A stretch of 40,284 nucleotides of DNA. Origin: a virus. The position numbers and the translations under genes are program-made. Positions 18,235 through 26,237 of this stretch are shown one piece after another (position 1 is the first letter of the stretch; each line of letters begins with the position of its first letter). The DNA lies in the IMG/VR virus record IMGVR_UViG_3300027509_000008, positions 1 to 40,284 of that record; one strand, given 5' to 3'. Under the pieces are notes generated by a model. The model did no database searches and was not told where the DNA came from. It worked only from the letters and a program-made list of their open reading frames with translations.

Positions 18235-18695
18235 AGGAGAACCAATAACCGTATATAAATCGTATAGTTACGGCAGATAAATTAAATTAATTATTGGTGA
18301 TAGTTATCTTATGTAAATGACTGGCCATGTTTTAGACCATTATTTGTACATTTCTTGAACAATTATTTAATTATTTGATTAATTTTTGAACGATTAAAAA
18401 GCATTTTAATTCTGATTGTTTTCAGTTTAGTTAGTAGTTTTGGGACCAACGATTTCTGATAACCAGTTATATCGTACATCTTAGCTAATGGGTCGAAATT
18501 GAAATGCACTTTTTAATAATTAATTAATTTCTTAAATCAATCATCACCTCCACTAAACGATCTTCATACGGTTTCTCTAAATCATCCTACTAATTATTTT
18601 AATAGTTAATTTGCGGCCAGCTTCATCTAAAAAATGAACGCGTAAGTTTAGGATTACTAAATAAAGATACACATAAAGTTTTGGAGAACTTAAAA

Positions 18696-19928
18696 ATGAA
18701 TAATAAAAAATTAATTAATAAAAATGACGTTATAGATTACCCATCATTAAAACCGTACAAGAAACCTACTTCAAAATACTTCTACGTTAGCTTCCATATT
18801 AATGGCAGGCTCCAGTCTAAGAGTACAAGAGAAGAACATTGCCCTGACCGCGCACACACTAAAGCTCGTGACATTTACAAAGAGGCTTTTGAAGGTAGTA
18901 AGACAGAATTAAAAGGTAAGGTCATATCATTAAAAGATGCTACGGATAATTTTATTCAATGCAGACAGAACCAAAAACGACTTGATAACAATAAGTCTAA
19001 AACGATAGCCAACTACATTAGCCTTGTTCATAGAATGAATGGATATAGGGTAATTAATAATAAAACAATAAAAGTCACTGGTTTGGTTCATCCAGATACA
19101 TTAATTCATGACATTACACAATCTGATGTGGATAAATTCATTTTCTCAATTGAAAACAGTGTTGCACCATCAACTGCGAAAGCCATGTGTCAAAAGCTCC
19201 GTATTATTTTTGATTTTTTCCTATTCGAAGATACAAACATAAGAAAAACGTTATACGCATTTAATAATTTAACGATACCAACTAATAAAGCCAGTCCAGC
19301 CACTGGTAAGAAGAAGTTTAAAGCTCCACCAAAGAAAGAATTAACGGTAACACCAGAACAGAAAGAAGGAATATTGGATTATTTAATTAATTCACCAAAT
19401 CCTGAAAATTATGTAGCAGCTCTTGGATTAATGGTTTTACCCCTGCGGATTGGAGAGTGGTTTTCATGTACTTGGGATTCTATCAACCTAGAAACTAAAA
19501 AGATTCAAACTAATCGAAGTAAGGGGTCTGAGGATGGCACAGTGACGATACCAGAGCGTTTAGTGAAAGCGCTAAAGCAACAGTACAAAAAGACTGGGAA
19601 CACGCCATACGTCTTCTACACGCCCAGATCAGCCACTGGATATAAATCACACTCAAATAATCGTTGGTTTAGAAAAGCAGTTGAAAGCTTACCTGATAAT
19701 CCAAATAATCCAAAGCTGGTGGAAAAGAGAAAAGGCAAACAAAAAGTAACACCACATACACTGAGACATACGCTAGCTACAGAGTTAGCTGAAATATTAA
19801 CTCCTGTTGAATTAACCCTGCATTTTGGCTGGTCCAGTGTCCAAATGGCAGAGCGTTATACACATAATAAGAAAAAGGATGTAACAGCAGATAAGGCTGC
19901 ACAGCATATGGATAATATAATGAAATAA
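18696..19928 (+). CDS. int: Tyrosine recombinase / phage integrase
   Basis: Catalytic signature LPLRIGEW (R), TPHTLRHTLAT (HxxR) and MAERYTH (Y). The ATG at 18696 has a GGAG 9 nt upstream and is preferred over the TTG at 18681 used by the ORF track. Confidence 0.9.
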   Translation: MNNKKLINKNDVIDYPSLKPYKKPTSKYFYVSFHINGRLQSKSTREEHCPDRAHTKARDIYKEAFEGSKTELKGKVISLKDATDNFIQCRQNQKRLDNNKSKTIANYISLVHRMNGYRVINNKTIKVTGLVHPDTLIHDITQSDVDKFIFSIENSVAPSTAKAMCQKLRIIFDFFLFEDTNIRKTLYAFNNLTIPTNKASPATGKKKFKAPPKKELTVTPEQKEGILDYLINSPNPENYVAALGLMVLPLRIGEWFSCTWDSINLETKKIQTNRSKGSEDGTVTIPERLVKALKQQYKKTGNTPYVFYTPRSATGYKSHSNNRWFRKAVESLPDNPNNPKLVEKRKGKQKVTPHTLRHTLATELAEILTPVELTLHFGWSSVQMAERYTHNKKKDVTADKAAQHMDNIMK

Positions 19929-22354: not shown

Positions 22355-22825
22355 ATGGCTACACCAAAGAAAGTTGGACCAAGAGTTTCCACCAGCACGA
22401 AAAAAGCACCTACTCCAAAATATCAGAATCAACCAAAGAACATTATCTATGAACCAAAACTAGATGCTGTATTGGCAGTTGAAAAAGAGATTGAAGGTCT
22501 TTTACCTCATGATCTTTTAAGAAGAACGGCACTTGGAAAACCAAACGTAATTACATATCCAACTGAACGCTATCATGAAAATGGTACTGACTACGATCTA
22601 ATTTATGTTAGCGAAATTATATATCCAACACAGTCAGAAATTCAAAAAAGCCAAATTGAGAGCGCTGGCTATTTCCAACCCAAACTTTCTGCCATTGCAA
22701 CCCAGAAGGTAGAGAAGAAAGTTATATCTGTTATGGAAGTTCCTCACATTGAAGCAGATGAATGGGAAGCAAAGGCTATTAAACAGGCAGAAGCTTTAGA
22801 AGAAAAGGCTCGCCAAATTGTCTAA
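22355..22825 (+). CDS. Small terminase subunit candidate (by position only)
   Basis: 156-aa ORF immediately upstream of TerL, overlapping it by 8 nt. Basic N-terminus. No motif recognised. Confidence 0.4.
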   Translation: MATPKKVGPRVSTSTKKAPTPKYQNQPKNIIYEPKLDAVLAVEKEIEGLLPHDLLRRTALGKPNVITYPTERYHENGTDYDLIYVSEIIYPTQSEIQKSQIESAGYFQPKLSAIATQKVEKKVISVMEVPHIEADEWEAKAIKQAEALEEKARQIV

Positions 22826-24776
22826 TACTATCCCAGCAACCACACAACAAGTTTCCGACCCAGAATTTAAAGTAGTTTTTAAACCATTAGCCGGTGCTCA
22901 AGAATTGATGCTCACTTGCCCAGCACAAAGACAATTATTTGTAGGAACAAGAGGTAGCGGAAAAACCGAAGTCACCCTAGCGCATTTCAGAAAATATGTT
23001 GGACTAGGATACGGAGCTAGTTTGACTGGAGTATATATTGCCCTGAGCTACAAGGCACTAGACGATATTATTAAAAAAAGTAGAAAGCTTTTTGGAAGCT
23101 TTGGAGATAACGCTCGTTTCTTATCTGCAAAAGGCTCATATCAGTGGGTATTCGCAGACGGAGCAACTTTAGCCTTACGTGTTGTTACAAACCAAACTCA
23201 ATATGATGAAAATATTCACGGAATTGAATACTCGCATATTTACTTCAACGAGCTTAGCACTTGGCCTAACTTAGAAATCTATGATATGTGCCACTCATCT
23301 AATCGCCATAGCTTTGTTCCAGAACGTGATTCTCCAATAGATGAAAATGGAGTCATGCAAATTCTTCCACCACTACCAACTGTTTCTATAGCAACAACAA
23401 ATCCCTCGGGCGCGTGTGCAAAAGAGATTAAAGCTCGTTTCGTTGATGTTGCCCCATACGGCTCCATTGTTAAAAGAGAAATGGAAGTATTCAATCCTAA
23501 AACAAACAAGATAGAAACAATGAGCAAAACTCAGTGTGCCATGTTTTCTTCTTGGATAGAAAATCCGTACTTGCCTCCAGAATATGGAATGGAGTTATAC
23601 GATATAAGTGACCCTGCTAAAAGGCTTGCTTGGTTGACTGGCCAATTCTCAGAAAATGATGATTCTCTAATTTTTGGTGACTGCTGGGATTCAAAATTCA
23701 ATGTGGTTAAAGATTTTATTCCACCACAAAACTTTCGTATATTCAGAATGTTTGATTGGGGTAGTAGTAAACCGTTTAGTGTTCAATGGGTAGCTATATC
23801 GGACGGTTCAGACGTAACTATAAATGGAAAGACTAGAAGAACAGTTAAGAATGATTGTTTCATCTTCAGTGAAATTTACGGCTGGAATGGTAAACCCGAT
23901 CAAGGTCTTAGAATGTTAGCTACTCAAATAGCGCAACTTATTATACAGCGAGAACTTGATTTAGGAATTTATAACAAAGTAAAAGCTGGCTATGCTGATA
24001 GTTCGATTTTTAATTCTGAAAACGGTTCTTGCATTGCAGACGATATGGCAGAACCAGTTTTTATTAAAGGAAAAAAATATAGTGGTGTCAAATTTATACC
24101 AGCCGACAAGTCACCTAACACGAGGCCACTGGGCTTTGAGAGATTGAGAACGGCGTTTGCAAATGCTAGAGAGTTTGAAGGTGTTATAAGAGAGAAACCA
24201 GCAATATTTGTTTGTGAAGGATGCTCTGAAGGTGTACTAAGAACAGTTCCTTCACTACCACGCGATCCTAAAAAAGATTTAGATAGTTTGAAATCGAGTG
24301 AGGACCACTGTTTTTCTGGAGACACTAAAGTTCTTCTAACTGATGGAACAACTCCAACTATTGAATCTTTGATTGGCACTAATGGATTAATACAAACTTC
24401 AAAAGGTTCACAACAATATAGAAATGCAAGACTAATTAAAAACAATCAAAGAACAATCGTTTTAAAGTTCTCTGATAATTCTAAAGTTGAATGCACTCCT
24501 GATCATATGTTTCATCTTAAAAATGGTAAAACAATCAGAGCAGACAAACTAAAACAATCAGATGATCTACTAACCAGTAACAATAAAAATATTAACTTCA
24601 TTGATATTGTAGAAGTTAGAAACAACGATGTTTATTGTTTAACAGTGCCAGCAACAGGCAACTTCGCATTAGCAAATGGATTAATAGTTTCAAATTGTGC
24701 AGATGTACTTCGATATCTAGCAAACGGTATGAAATCATCTTTTACAACCACTGGCCGACAATCAGGATATTTCTAA
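22818..24776 (+). CDS. terL: Large terminase subunit, interrupted by a mini-intein
   Basis: Walker A VGTRGSGKT, Walker B-like HIYFNELS, and nuclease-domain acidic motifs (FDWGSS, YADSSIF, EDH-[intein]-CADVLRY). The start is probably the TTG at 22818, because Walker A lies upstream of the first ATG. Confidence 0.9.
   Translation: MSNTIPATTQQVSDPEFKVVFKPLAGAQELMLTCPAQRQLFVGTRGSGKTEVTLAHFRKYVGLGYGASLTGVYIALSYKALDDIIKKSRKLFGSFGDNARFLSAKGSYQWVFADGATLALRVVTNQTQYDENIHGIEYSHIYFNELSTWPNLEIYDMCHSSNRHSFVPERDSPIDENGVMQILPPLPTVSIATTNPSGACAKEIKARFVDVAPYGSIVKREMEVFNPKTNKIETMSKTQCAMFSSWIENPYLPPEYGMELYDISDPAKRLAWLTGQFSENDDSLIFGDCWDSKFNVVKDFIPPQNFRIFRMFDWGSSKPFSVQWVAISDGSDVTINGKTRRTVKNDCFIFSEIYGWNGKPDQGLRMLATQIAQLIIQRELDLGIYNKVKAGYADSSIFNSENGSCIADDMAEPVFIKGKKYSGVKFIPADKSPNTRPLGFERLRTAFANAREFEGVIREKPAIFVCEGCSEGVLRTVPSLPRDPKKDLDSLKSSEDHCFSGDTKVLLTDGTTPTIESLIGTNGLIQTSKGSQQYRNARLIKNNQRTIVLKFSDNSKVECTPDHMFHLKNGKTIRADKLKQSDDLLTSNNKNINFIDIVEVRNNDVYCLTVPATGNFALANGLIVSNCADVLRYLANGMKSSFTTTGRQSGYF
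24309..24695 (+). mobile_element. Mini-intein (129 aa) within TerL
   Basis: Cys1 (CFSGDTKVLLTDG), block B TPDH, block F/G VYCLTVPATGNFALANGLIVSN, terminal Asn followed by a +1 Cys. There is no room for a homing endonuclease domain. Confidence 0.85.
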
Positions 24777-24836: not shown

Positions 24837-26237
24837 ATGTCTTTAAAAAATCTGCATCCACAATTCGAAGATATCTCAGATGAGTACGAAAAAATTAATG
24901 ATGTTCTTGGTGGAAGCCGTGTTGTTAAAAATAAAGGCGTTCACTATCTTCCCGCTACGTCTGGTCAAGTTGTTGATGGCTACGGTAAAGCTGGAACTCT
25001 TGGACAACAGAACTACGAATCCTACATTACGAGAGCTATCTTTCCATCCACTTATGAAACAGCTCTTAGACGTATCTTAGGAATTCTGCATAGAAATCCT
25101 GCAAACATCAAACTTCCAGACAGTATGAAAGCTTTATACACAGATGCAGATGGCGCTGGTACTTCAATATATGATCTTCTCAAAAAAATCAACGAATATC
25201 AACTTGGGATTGGCCGCTGTGGAGTGCTTGGTGATATTAAGGTTCTTAGTAACAATAAAATTCTTCCTGTATTAAAAATCTATTCTGGAACAGCAATTCC
25301 TAATTGGTCTGAAGACTGTCATAGCGCTGCTGAATTTGTATTACTTAATGAAACAGGGCAAAAGATGAATCCAGAATCTTTTAAGTATGAAGAAATCAAA
25401 CAATATAGAGTAATTAGAGTAATTAAAAATGCAGAAGGTGAATCAACTTACGTCACTGCTACAACCAATAATGAATCAGATGAAATTAGCGAATTAACAT
25501 ACATTTCTCCTAATGCACAAGGCGCGACACTAGAAGAACTACCTTTCAGCTTTATTAATGCTGGTGATACTAAATGCTGCATTAGTATGCCGCCTATGAG
25601 CGGTCTGGCCGATATGTGCATTTCTATCTATCGTAGTAGTGCAGATTTAGAGCAAGCACTTTTCAATACTTCTTCAGATACTCTTGTTATCACTCGTACT
25701 CAAAGTATTGCAGATGATGAAGACGAAACAATCCGCACAGGAGCTGGCAGTGTAATTAAACTTGGAAAAGACGACAATGCAAAGTTCATAGGGGTGAACT
25801 CTAAAAGTATTCCATCTCAAAGACAGAACATTGAATATAAACATGAAATGGCTTCACAGTTAGCTTCACAGCTTGCCATAGAAAGTAAGTCAAGTAGAAC
25901 AAGTCAGGAAGCTTTGGCCACTCGTTTGGAATCCGCTACGGCAGCATATTCAGCACTAGCTCTAGCTGGAGCAGCAGGTCTTGAAAATAGTCTAAGAAAA
26001 CTAGCTCCATTGTTTGGCGTTCAAAATCCAACTGAAGAAATCGTTGTAACTCCAAATCTTGAGTTTGCTGCGGCTGTTCTTGATAGTGATACTTTTGTTG
26101 ATCTTCAATCAGCTAAGAATAACGGTTTACCACTGTCTAACAAGTCACTTCATAAGAACCTTGTTAAAAGAGGTGTAACTGAAATGACATATGAAGAAGA
26201 ACAAGCAGCTATAGCAGCAGAAGAAACGTTGCTTTAA
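24837..26237 (+). CDS. Portal protein
   Basis: 466-aa ORF directly after TerL and before the Mu-F-like head morphogenesis gene. Called from position and size. Confidence 0.75.
   Translation: MSLKNLHPQFEDISDEYEKINDVLGGSRVVKNKGVHYLPATSGQVVDGYGKAGTLGQQNYESYITRAIFPSTYETALRRILGILHRNPANIKLPDSMKALYTDADGAGTSIYDLLKKINEYQLGIGRCGVLGDIKVLSNNKILPVLKIYSGTAIPNWSEDCHSAAEFVLLNETGQKMNPESFKYEEIKQYRVIRVIKNAEGESTYVTATTNNESDEISELTYISPNAQGATLEELPFSFINAGDTKCCISMPPMSGLADMCISIYRSSADLEQALFNTSSDTLVITRTQSIADDEDETIRTGAGSVIKLGKDDNAKFIGVNSKSIPSQRQNIEYKHEMASQLASQLAIESKSSRTSQEALATRLESATAAYSALALAGAAGLENSLRKLAPLFGVQNPTEEIVVTPNLEFAAAVLDSDTFVDLQSAKNNGLPLSNKSLHKNLVKRGVTEMTYEEEQAAIAAEETLL

Follow-up and report, generated by a model that had tools for sequence, protein, structure and literature searches.

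A class-1 mini-intein predicted to split the nuclease motif of a phage large terminase

The window analysed here is the whole 40,284-nucleotide (nt) stretch of the IMG/VR virus record IMGVR_UViG_3300027509_000008 (positions 1 to 40,284), and our subject is a 129-amino-acid (aa) insert encoded within its gene for the large terminase, TerL (coordinates of all features are collected in Table 1). Profile matches and structural modelling identify the product of the interrupted gene as a large terminase with an N-terminal P-loop ATPase domain and a C-terminal RNase H-like nuclease domain. The open reading frame (ORF) matches phrog_2 'terminase large subunit' (E 2e-22), and a tblastn search with TerL reached 591 phage records, the best of them being Vibrio and Alteromonas siphovirus TerL genes (44-47% identity, with a Vibrio phage at the top); some of these matches seem to reach residue 520 or 589, the C-extein of the homologue being misplaced onto the start of the intein. 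In an AlphaFold model of the whole precursor the predicted local distance difference test (pLDDT) exceeds 90 over most of residues 20-480, and Foldseek paired this model with D6E TerL (E 1e-15), T4 gp17, Sf6 gp2, HK97 TerL and the P22 nuclease domain. The insert itself is in frame and stop-free, opening with TGT (Cys1, from 24309) and closing with AAT (Asn129, to 24695), after which a second TGT (24696-24698) encodes the Cys at the +1 position (Cys+1). Script translation yields an insert of 129 aa and a spliced TerL of 523 aa, and the precursor peptide reads SSEDH/CFSGDTKV...CTPDHMFH...NDVYCLTVPATGNFALANGLIVSN/CADVLRYLANG (slashes mark the splice junctions here and below). An earlier reading of the letters (hereafter the original prediction) had placed a mini-intein at these very coordinates and between these peptides, and its numbers and strings agree exactly with the DNA, the ORF list and the translation.

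Searched in isolation, the insert scores above the curated cut-offs of both profiles for the splicing termini, TIGR01445 intein_Nterm (30.9 bits, cut-off 24.5) and TIGR01443 intein_Cterm (31.1 bits, cut-off 15.6), and above that of PF14890 Intein_splicing (39.9 bits, cut-off 35.8); PT-HINT, Vint and Hom_end_hint all fall under their Pfam cut-offs. A sequence search of the PDB returned only inteins for this part of the protein (Pho RadA, Npu DnaE, NrdJ-1). A word-indexed protein search with the 129-aa intein gave zero matches, and HMMER, run exhaustively against 1.8 billion representative proteins, recovered 2531 relatives at E<=1e-3. Among the matches listed (the window's own protein aside) none exceeds ~51% identity over the matched stretches and the closest full-length intein stands at 47%, so that the window intein is without a close sequenced relative. 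Furthermore, when 34 complete mini-inteins with short flanks (cut from the HMMER matches) were aligned with that of the window (alignment A4, 35 sequences), Cys1, the Thr and His of block B and the terminal Asn were found to be invariant. The AlphaFold2 model based on A4, in which the intein was folded alone with short flanks (pLDDT 94.4, predicted template-modelling score (pTM) 0.88), is an all-beta horseshoe forming one compact HINT domain. When Foldseek compared it with the PDB, the 12 best matches were without exception inteins (E ~1e-8, TM up to 0.85), among them Npu and Ssp DnaB, Ssp and Npu DnaE (TM 0.83), NrdJ-1 and Mtu RecA, with gp41-1 somewhat lower in the list (ranks 16 and 19, TMt 0.84-0.85). 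Taken together, the splicing profiles, the predicted HINT fold and the boundary residues confirm, at the level of sequence and model, that the insert is a class-1 intein of mini size. The original prediction had recognised it by a Cys1 with block A, a TxxH block B and a terminal Asn followed by a +1 Cys (all of them present), and had proposed Hint/intein profiles as a check, which the three profile scores now supply.

The insertion point falls within the nuclease motif of TerL. Across the spliced protein and 36 intein-less homologues (alignment A2, 37 TerL sequences), E145, D313, D394, D496, H497, D500 and Y504 are invariant, with E495 (at least 90%) and R503 near-invariant; in an A2-type set extended by same-site intein carriers (alignment A3, precursor numbering) the same motif columns remain invariant as D496, H497, D629 and Y633. 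It is the invariant His and the invariant Asp of this E-D-H-x-x-D-x-x-R-Y motif that the intein splits from one another, and its removal restores a contiguous E-D-H/C-A-D-x-x-R-Y in a 523-aa TerL that is colinear with 36/36 intein-less homologues. The closest of these (P0002, 524 aa, 60% identity) is insert-free and reads LKSSEDHCSDVLRYL at the site (SSEDH-CSDVLRY), its empty site being GAT CAT / TGC TCA GAT in the DNA. The original prediction had the intein interrupting the Asp motif of the nuclease and suggested intein-less TerL proteins for fixing the insertion point; the alignment runs uninterrupted across the site in P0002 and 35 others, places the junction exactly, and agrees with the His400-x-x-Asp403 of SPP1 at motif level.

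In that phage, the paper on the nuclease of G2P reports Mn2+ coordinated by His400 and Asp403, with H400A and D403N disrupting nuclease activity and His400 taking the place of T4 gp17 Asp542. The G2P sequence (RLEDKDNH400-T-I-D403-A-T-R-Y-AFE) holds the same D-x-H-x-x-D-x-x-R-Y motif at an equal distance from the C-terminus. By motif and literature, His497 and Asp500 would be two metal ligands of the nuclease, equivalent to His400 and Asp403 of G2P, and since the intein lies between the two, the unspliced precursor should be without nuclease activity. In intein-less homologues, the position of Cys+1 is held by Ile, Val, Ala, Leu or Cys; nine of them (P0002 and P0004 included) already have a Cys at the would-be +1 residue (EDH-C-x-D), which may mean either that an intein was once lost there or that the site was suited beforehand to receive one.

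The site is a recurrent one. In a pattern search, 33 of the 262 fetched proteins (counting that of the window) had the nuclease motif interrupted by an intein, 30 at the window's own position ([DENGA]DH/C...N/C-x-D-x-x-RY) and three one residue downstream (P0188, P0243, P0246); their lengths are 123-135 aa in 11 cases, 153 aa and 191 aa in one each, and 276-328 aa in the other 20. The large same-site inteins share 55-62 of 129 residues with the window's in their splicing parts, and carry an extra ~190 residues between block B and block F, the usual place of a homing endonuclease. These middle regions have no Pfam match in the TerL frame; in three of the loci (L008, L011 and L012) a long +2-frame ORF running through them encodes a conserved HNH endonuclease (Pfam HNH_3, E 3.8e-17 for L008), an arrangement like the 'non-canonical architecture' with secondary ORFs that is discussed in a 2025 survey of actinobacteriophage inteins. 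Aligned with same-site inteins of 309-325 aa, the window intein is without the ~190-aa middle region, and because this region, present in its same-site relatives of 277-328 aa, is missing, we regard it as a mini-intein. A profile search of the 129-aa insert for endonuclease families gave no match, and the mini-intein claim of the original prediction thus stands on size, on the single compact domain and on the lack of a middle region. Most likely, the window intein derives from larger same-site inteins with an HNH gene by losing that gene, and is now most likely inherited vertically. Its GC content (30.2%, vs 38.7% in the exteins) is low because its composition is rich in Asn, Lys, Ile and Thr; GC at third codon positions (16%, the 25th percentile of the window's coding windows) is no outlier, and a recent horizontal acquisition, for which low GC might be a cue, is unsupported.

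We also observed multiple inteins in several TerL homologues. The 191-aa fragment P0127 has two inteins six residues apart (GVLSSN/TASEDH/CLSGDT), and P0133 combines a LAGLIDADG-containing insert, a further Hint-like stretch (Vint, below cut-off) and a nuclease-site mini-intein (P0133 and P0144 are ~1180 aa long). P-loop inteins occur in P0088 and P0099, and P0091 has an insert near Walker B.

We infer splicing itself from the anatomy of the insert, the profiles, the predicted fold, the insertion point, the colinearity with intein-less homologues and the recurrence of the site, and put the probability that canonical class-1 splicing restores the His-x-x-Asp nuclease motif of TerL at roughly 85%. 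A splicing-competent class-1 mini-intein would then be fixed in the TerL gene of a tailed, probably temperate phage. Translation would produce a precursor (predicted mass 72.8 kDa) in which the 129-aa HINT domain parts His497 from Asp500 (spliced numbering). An N-S acyl shift at Cys1, helped by Thr63 and His66 of block B, would be followed by a trans-thioesterification in which the N-extein passes to Cys+1; cyclisation of Asn129 would then free the intein (predicted 14.2 kDa), and an S-N shift would remake the peptide bond, giving a TerL of predicted 58.5 kDa with the sequence SSEDH-CADVLRY. Concatemeric DNA would be cut by spliced TerL only, and packaging would therefore depend on splicing: an active terminase nuclease, hence packaging, should exist in this phage only after the intein has left. 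For annotation, the locus is best recorded as one TerL gene with an intein, not as a 652-aa 'novel' terminase.

Several observations weigh against this reading. Three residues that commonly assist splicing are non-canonical (Cys110 at block F position 4, Gly117 for the block F His and Ser128 for the penultimate His), and our literature search found no splicing test of any member of the sub-clade combining Cys1 with a Cys at block F position 4 (F:4). In the full-precursor AlphaFold model the intein region has a pLDDT of 33-76, and the good model is that of the intein folded alone with short flanks. As regards the nuclease, the TerL-family profile sets eDHiaDevrY over NDHQLDADRY of the D6E TerL in the PDB, a segment that is weak alone (domain independent E-value (i-E-value) 46), and a comparison of the TerL profile with SPP1 G2P by hhalign covered the ATPase domain alone (57% probability), without reaching the nuclease domain, so that the proposed correspondence with the SPP1 ligands is drawn from the motif and the literature.

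The non-canonical residues are common to dozens of relatives at many different insertion sites, on which ground we argue that they are tolerated. Across 138 related C-terminal modules (raw counts, phylogeny ignored), a penultimate His is present in 57/58 modules with F:4 Asp, whereas in those with F:4 Cys the penultimate residue is His in 34/77, Ser in 22, Lys in 8, Ala in 6 and Gly in 5. Cys+1 is found in 73/77 modules with F:4 Cys vs 23/58 with F:4 Asp, and modules with F:4 Cys also tend to have lost the block F His, mostly to Gly. Among distinct flanks outside the TerL nuclease site the same trends hold for Cys+1 (28/32 with F:4 Cys vs 20/48 with F:4 Asp) and for the penultimate His (13/32 vs 48/48), with Fisher's exact p = 5e-5 and 3e-10, respectively, on these flank-deduplicated sets, shared ancestry being ignored. 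Class-1 phage inteins often have Gly, Lys or Ser for the penultimate His, and putting His back in one of them raised precursor accumulation (Kelley et al. 2016, PMC5050341); splicing without this His is possible (PMC5050341, PMC7664689). Since Ser occupies the position in 22 of the 77 F:4 Cys modules, and likewise in the Npu DnaE intein (which ends in NGFIASN), we consider Ser128, in the light of these findings of Kelley et al. 2016, ordinary for this intein clade. The original prediction had singled out this Ser as possibly affecting Asn cyclisation: the residue is as it said, the warning loses its force on the same evidence, and the more unusual Cys110 and Gly117 had escaped it.

Standard inteins mostly have Asp at F:4, and the Trp-Cys-Thr (class 3) inteins have Cys there (Tori et al. 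2010, PMC2807308); a 2020 survey defines class 3 by the lack of an N-terminal Cys together with a Cys at F:4. Membership of class 3, prompted by the block F Cys, was rejected, as Cys1 is present and Phe68 and Val127 stand where Trp and Thr are required; only Cys110 fits. The combination of F:4 Cys with Cys1 is the sole feature of the intein of wider mechanistic interest, and the sub-clade that shares it is, as far as we could find, undescribed.

The surrounding genome resembles that of an intact phage, with integrase, primase-helicase, portal, head morphogenesis protein, major capsid protein and tape measure protein, and the neighbours of TerL include the genes for the portal, head-morphogenesis and major capsid proteins. 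The integrase-like ORF suggests a temperate lifestyle, and the window yielded no tRNA genes. The candidate small terminase, assigned by position, had no family match. The ORF two genes upstream of TerL that matches 'HNH endonuclease' may encode a terminase-associated or a free-standing homing endonuclease; as a trans-acting homing endonuclease of the mini-intein it was rejected, since it does not resemble the HNH enzymes encoded inside same-site inteins. Where the window has a thioredoxin-like ORF, the intein-less relative L003 has lysis-like genes. The thioredoxin-like neighbour was also considered as a general partner of same-site inteins and discarded, not being seen at three other loci. 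The antisense ORF is probably spurious.

Table 1. Coordinates of the TerL gene, its intein and the neighbouring features in the window, with the nested ORFs of three same-site inteins from other loci (numbered within each locus)
Feature	Position	Strand	Remarks
TerL precursor gene	22818-24776	+	652 codons + stop; TTG start; 8-nt overlap with upstream ORF
N-extein, aa 1-497	22818-24308	+	ATPase domain and most of nuclease domain; last residues SSEDH; alignments A2, A3
Walker A / P-loop GTRGSGKT, aa 43-50	22944-22967	+	G43, G46, G48, K49 invariant in 37 TerL
Asp313 (FDWGSS)	23754-23756	+	candidate first catalytic acidic residue of RNase H-like nuclease; invariant in A2, A3; role proposed from TerL nuclease literature
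Asp394 (YADSS)	23997-23999	+	candidate second catalytic acidic residue; invariant in A2, A3; proposed role
N-terminal half of nuclease motif, E495-D496-H497	24300-24308	+	His497 = intein -1 residue
Class-1 mini-intein (predicted), 129 aa, Cys1-Asn129	24309-24695	+	14.2 kDa; profiles, HINT fold, 2531 relatives
Block A, CFSGDTKVLL	24309-24338	+	contains Cys1 nucleophile, invariant in A4
Block B, ECTPDHMFHL	24489-24518	+	Thr63 (B:7), His66 (B:10); B:12 Phe68 instead of Trp
Block F, DVYCLTVPATGNFAL	24627-24671	+	Cys110 at F:4 (usually Asp); Gly117 in place of 'HNF' His
Cys110 codon	24636-24638	+	VYC-LTV context, block F position 4
Block G, NGLIVSN	24675-24695	+	G:5 Val127, penultimate Ser128, terminal Asn129
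C-extein, 26 aa, CADVLRYLANGMKSSFTTTGRQSGYF	24696-24773	+	Cys+1 = nucleophile; Asp (D629 precursor, D500 spliced) and Tyr invariant
Tyrosine-integrase-like ORF	18681-19928	+	phrog_1, E 3.5e-36
Zinc-finger/HNH-like ORF, 346 aa	20879-21919	+	phrog_559 'HNH endonuclease', E 4.6e-43; Pfam treble-clef zinc-finger domains; two genes upstream of TerL
Thioredoxin-like ORF, 91 aa	21972-22247	+	CAPC motif; several Pfam thioredoxin families, 20-25 bits, below cut-offs
Candidate small terminase, 156 aa	22355-22825	+	position only: adjoins TerL upstream; 154-aa ORF in same place in L003
Portal protein gene	24837-26237	+	phrog_145 portal protein, E 4.9e-87
Antisense ORF, 151 aa	23990-24445	-	overlaps nuclease-domain end and first 137 nt of intein; no Pfam match
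Nested HNH ORF, L008	1950-2648		intein 1768-2715
Nested HNH ORF, L011	1156-1947		intein 1067-1993
Nested HNH ORF, L012	1913-2755		intein 1845-2801

The second Cys of the active site invites a different account of how the window intein works. The sub-clade to which it appears to belong is large and keeps Cys1 together with a Cys at F:4, the branch-point position of class 3, and might hand a thioester from Cys1 by way of Cys(F:4) on to Cys+1, or be gated by redox state through a disulfide among these cysteines. The intein would in that case be conditional, Cys1, Cys110 and Cys+1 acting as gate or relay, with the terminase nuclease, and through it packaging, released only in a reducing cytoplasm and possibly assisted by the phage's thioredoxin-like protein. 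Such behaviour would be in keeping with the place of the F:4 Cys between both splice junctions in class-3 inteins (PMC2807308, PMC7664689 and the 2020 survey), with its covariation with Cys+1 and with the loss of the penultimate His in the 138 modules, and with the CAPC thioredoxin-like ORF upstream of the terminase genes, which is missing there in the intein-less L003. This support is purely correlative, however, and the covariation may stem from the shared ancestry of one clade; the thioredoxin matches lie under the Pfam cut-offs, and none of three further TerL genes with a same-site intein had a flagged thioredoxin-like neighbour. We thus hold both the relay or gate and the conditional packaging that would follow from it to be unlikely. 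Were this account true, the sub-clade would stand mechanistically midway from class 1 to class 3, with a bearing on whether class 3 arose by divergence from class 1 or by convergence (PMC7664689).

A decayed, inactive intein would leave a dead TerL gene in a defective prophage or a non-viable variant. The missing block F Asp, block F His and penultimate His would agree with such decay, as would the integrase (the phage could be a resident prophage) and an exact-sequence contig look-up of the window's TerL protein that found no copy. We judge it improbable nonetheless: the frame is open over 652 codons with the four invariant splicing residues and both extein halves of the motif kept, the same non-canonical residues recur in at least 32 distinct insertion contexts (which points to selection), the penultimate Ser is shared with the Npu DnaE intein, and the protein cluster is present on 3 contigs. 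More improbable still, in our view, is a non-splicing HINT or bacterial intein-like (BIL) domain that stays in the mature terminase as a permanent extra domain or only cleaves it to a truncated form. BIL structures (6y75, 2lwy) are among the fold matches and there are weak Pfam matches to PT-HINT and Vint, yet these two stay below cut-offs that the intein-specific profiles exceed. BIL domains are without a +1 nucleophile, mainly cleave and are not found in conserved catalytic motifs (PMC7664689), whereas the window insert has the +1 Cys and the terminal Asn that they typically miss, and separates two invariant residues in the catalytic motif of an essential enzyme whose intein-less orthologues are contiguous; cleavage alone would strip from it the invariant Asp, Arg and Tyr on the 26-aa C-extein.

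The nuclease motif as an intein site is already published (one residue downstream, in Mic1) and is common in metagenomes, and the window is a further case of it, not a discovery. The TerL of Microcystis phage Mic1 is interrupted by an intein in each of its ATPase and nuclease domains, according to Yang et al. 2020 (PMC7156551; GenBank MN013189), and we read its gene as QQDHL/CFVAGTQV...AVLVSN/CDALRYVLA. Like that of the window, the Mic1 nuclease-domain intein is of mini size, interrupts the same motif and combines Cys1 and Cys+1 with a terminal Asn preceded by Ser, and in both cases splicing is predicted from sequence (for Mic1, to judge from the text consulted). Unlike the window's, it is inserted one residue downstream (DH-L/C-D vs DH/C-A-D), has VYN in block F where the window has VYC, and is accompanied by a second, large intein in the ATPase domain; tblastn with the window intein does not reach it, the two being too far apart in sequence. 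Further parallels come from metagenomic proteins (P0121, P0135, P0154) and from the environmental viral genome MW202478.1 in GenBank, whose 'large terminase protein' reads NDH/CFHGDT...IVHN/CMDAMRY: they share with the window the site (EDH/C...N/C-x-D-x-x-RY), the signature DVYCLTVP...N/C and splicing domains that are 39-48% identical, whereas many of the same-site inteins are of 277-328 aa with an HNH gene in another frame, in host TerL proteins ~27-37% identical. In Brochothrix phage BL3 (NC_015254; L006 727-2607), the TerL gene reads EDKDNH/CVTGDT...IIHN/CIDATRYAFE, with flanks near-identical to those of SPP1 (the BL3 protein is closely related to G2P), and the intein sits at exactly the same site, directly after the motif His; unlike the contiguous intein of the window, it has two stop codons inside and is annotated as two genes (gp2/gp3), which makes it a candidate for either a naturally split or a decayed intein.

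Among inteins with experimental or survey data, those of mycobacteriophage TerL have the same host family, lie beside invariant catalytic residues and, in class 1, often lack the penultimate His, as in the window; in contrast to it, all seven of their sites are in the ATPase domain (five representatives spliced), most carry LAGLIDADG endonucleases and several are of class 3 (Kelley et al. 2016, PMC5050341). TerL is also the commonest intein host in the 2025 actinobacteriophage survey (293/784 classified inteins, 497 of class 1 and 287 of class 3). The Npu and Ssp DnaE inteins resemble the window's in fold (TM 0.83 for Npu), in Cys1 and Cys+1 and, for Npu, in block G (NFALKNGFIASN vs NFALANGLIVSN) with its penultimate Ser, but are naturally split, have the F:4 Asp and the HNF His, and reside in DNA polymerase III alpha. 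Class-3 inteins (typified by DnaB of mycobacteriophage Bethlehem) share the F:4 Cys and are frequent in phage ATPase and terminase genes, but possess a Trp-Cys-Thr triplet and no N-terminal nucleophile, where the window has Phe at B:12, Val at G:5 and Cys1 (PMC2807308). With its 129 aa and its Cys/Cys junctions, the window intein might serve as a small splicing tool, of which many exist already. Set against these systems, the His-x-x-Asp motif emerges as a recurrent intein landing site across SPP1-like, Mic1, T4-like and 9g/Vibrio-siphovirus-like TerL lineages, which complements the mycobacteriophage picture of TerL inteins in the ATPase domain, and we consider that the nuclease motif deserves recognition as a general TerL intein site.

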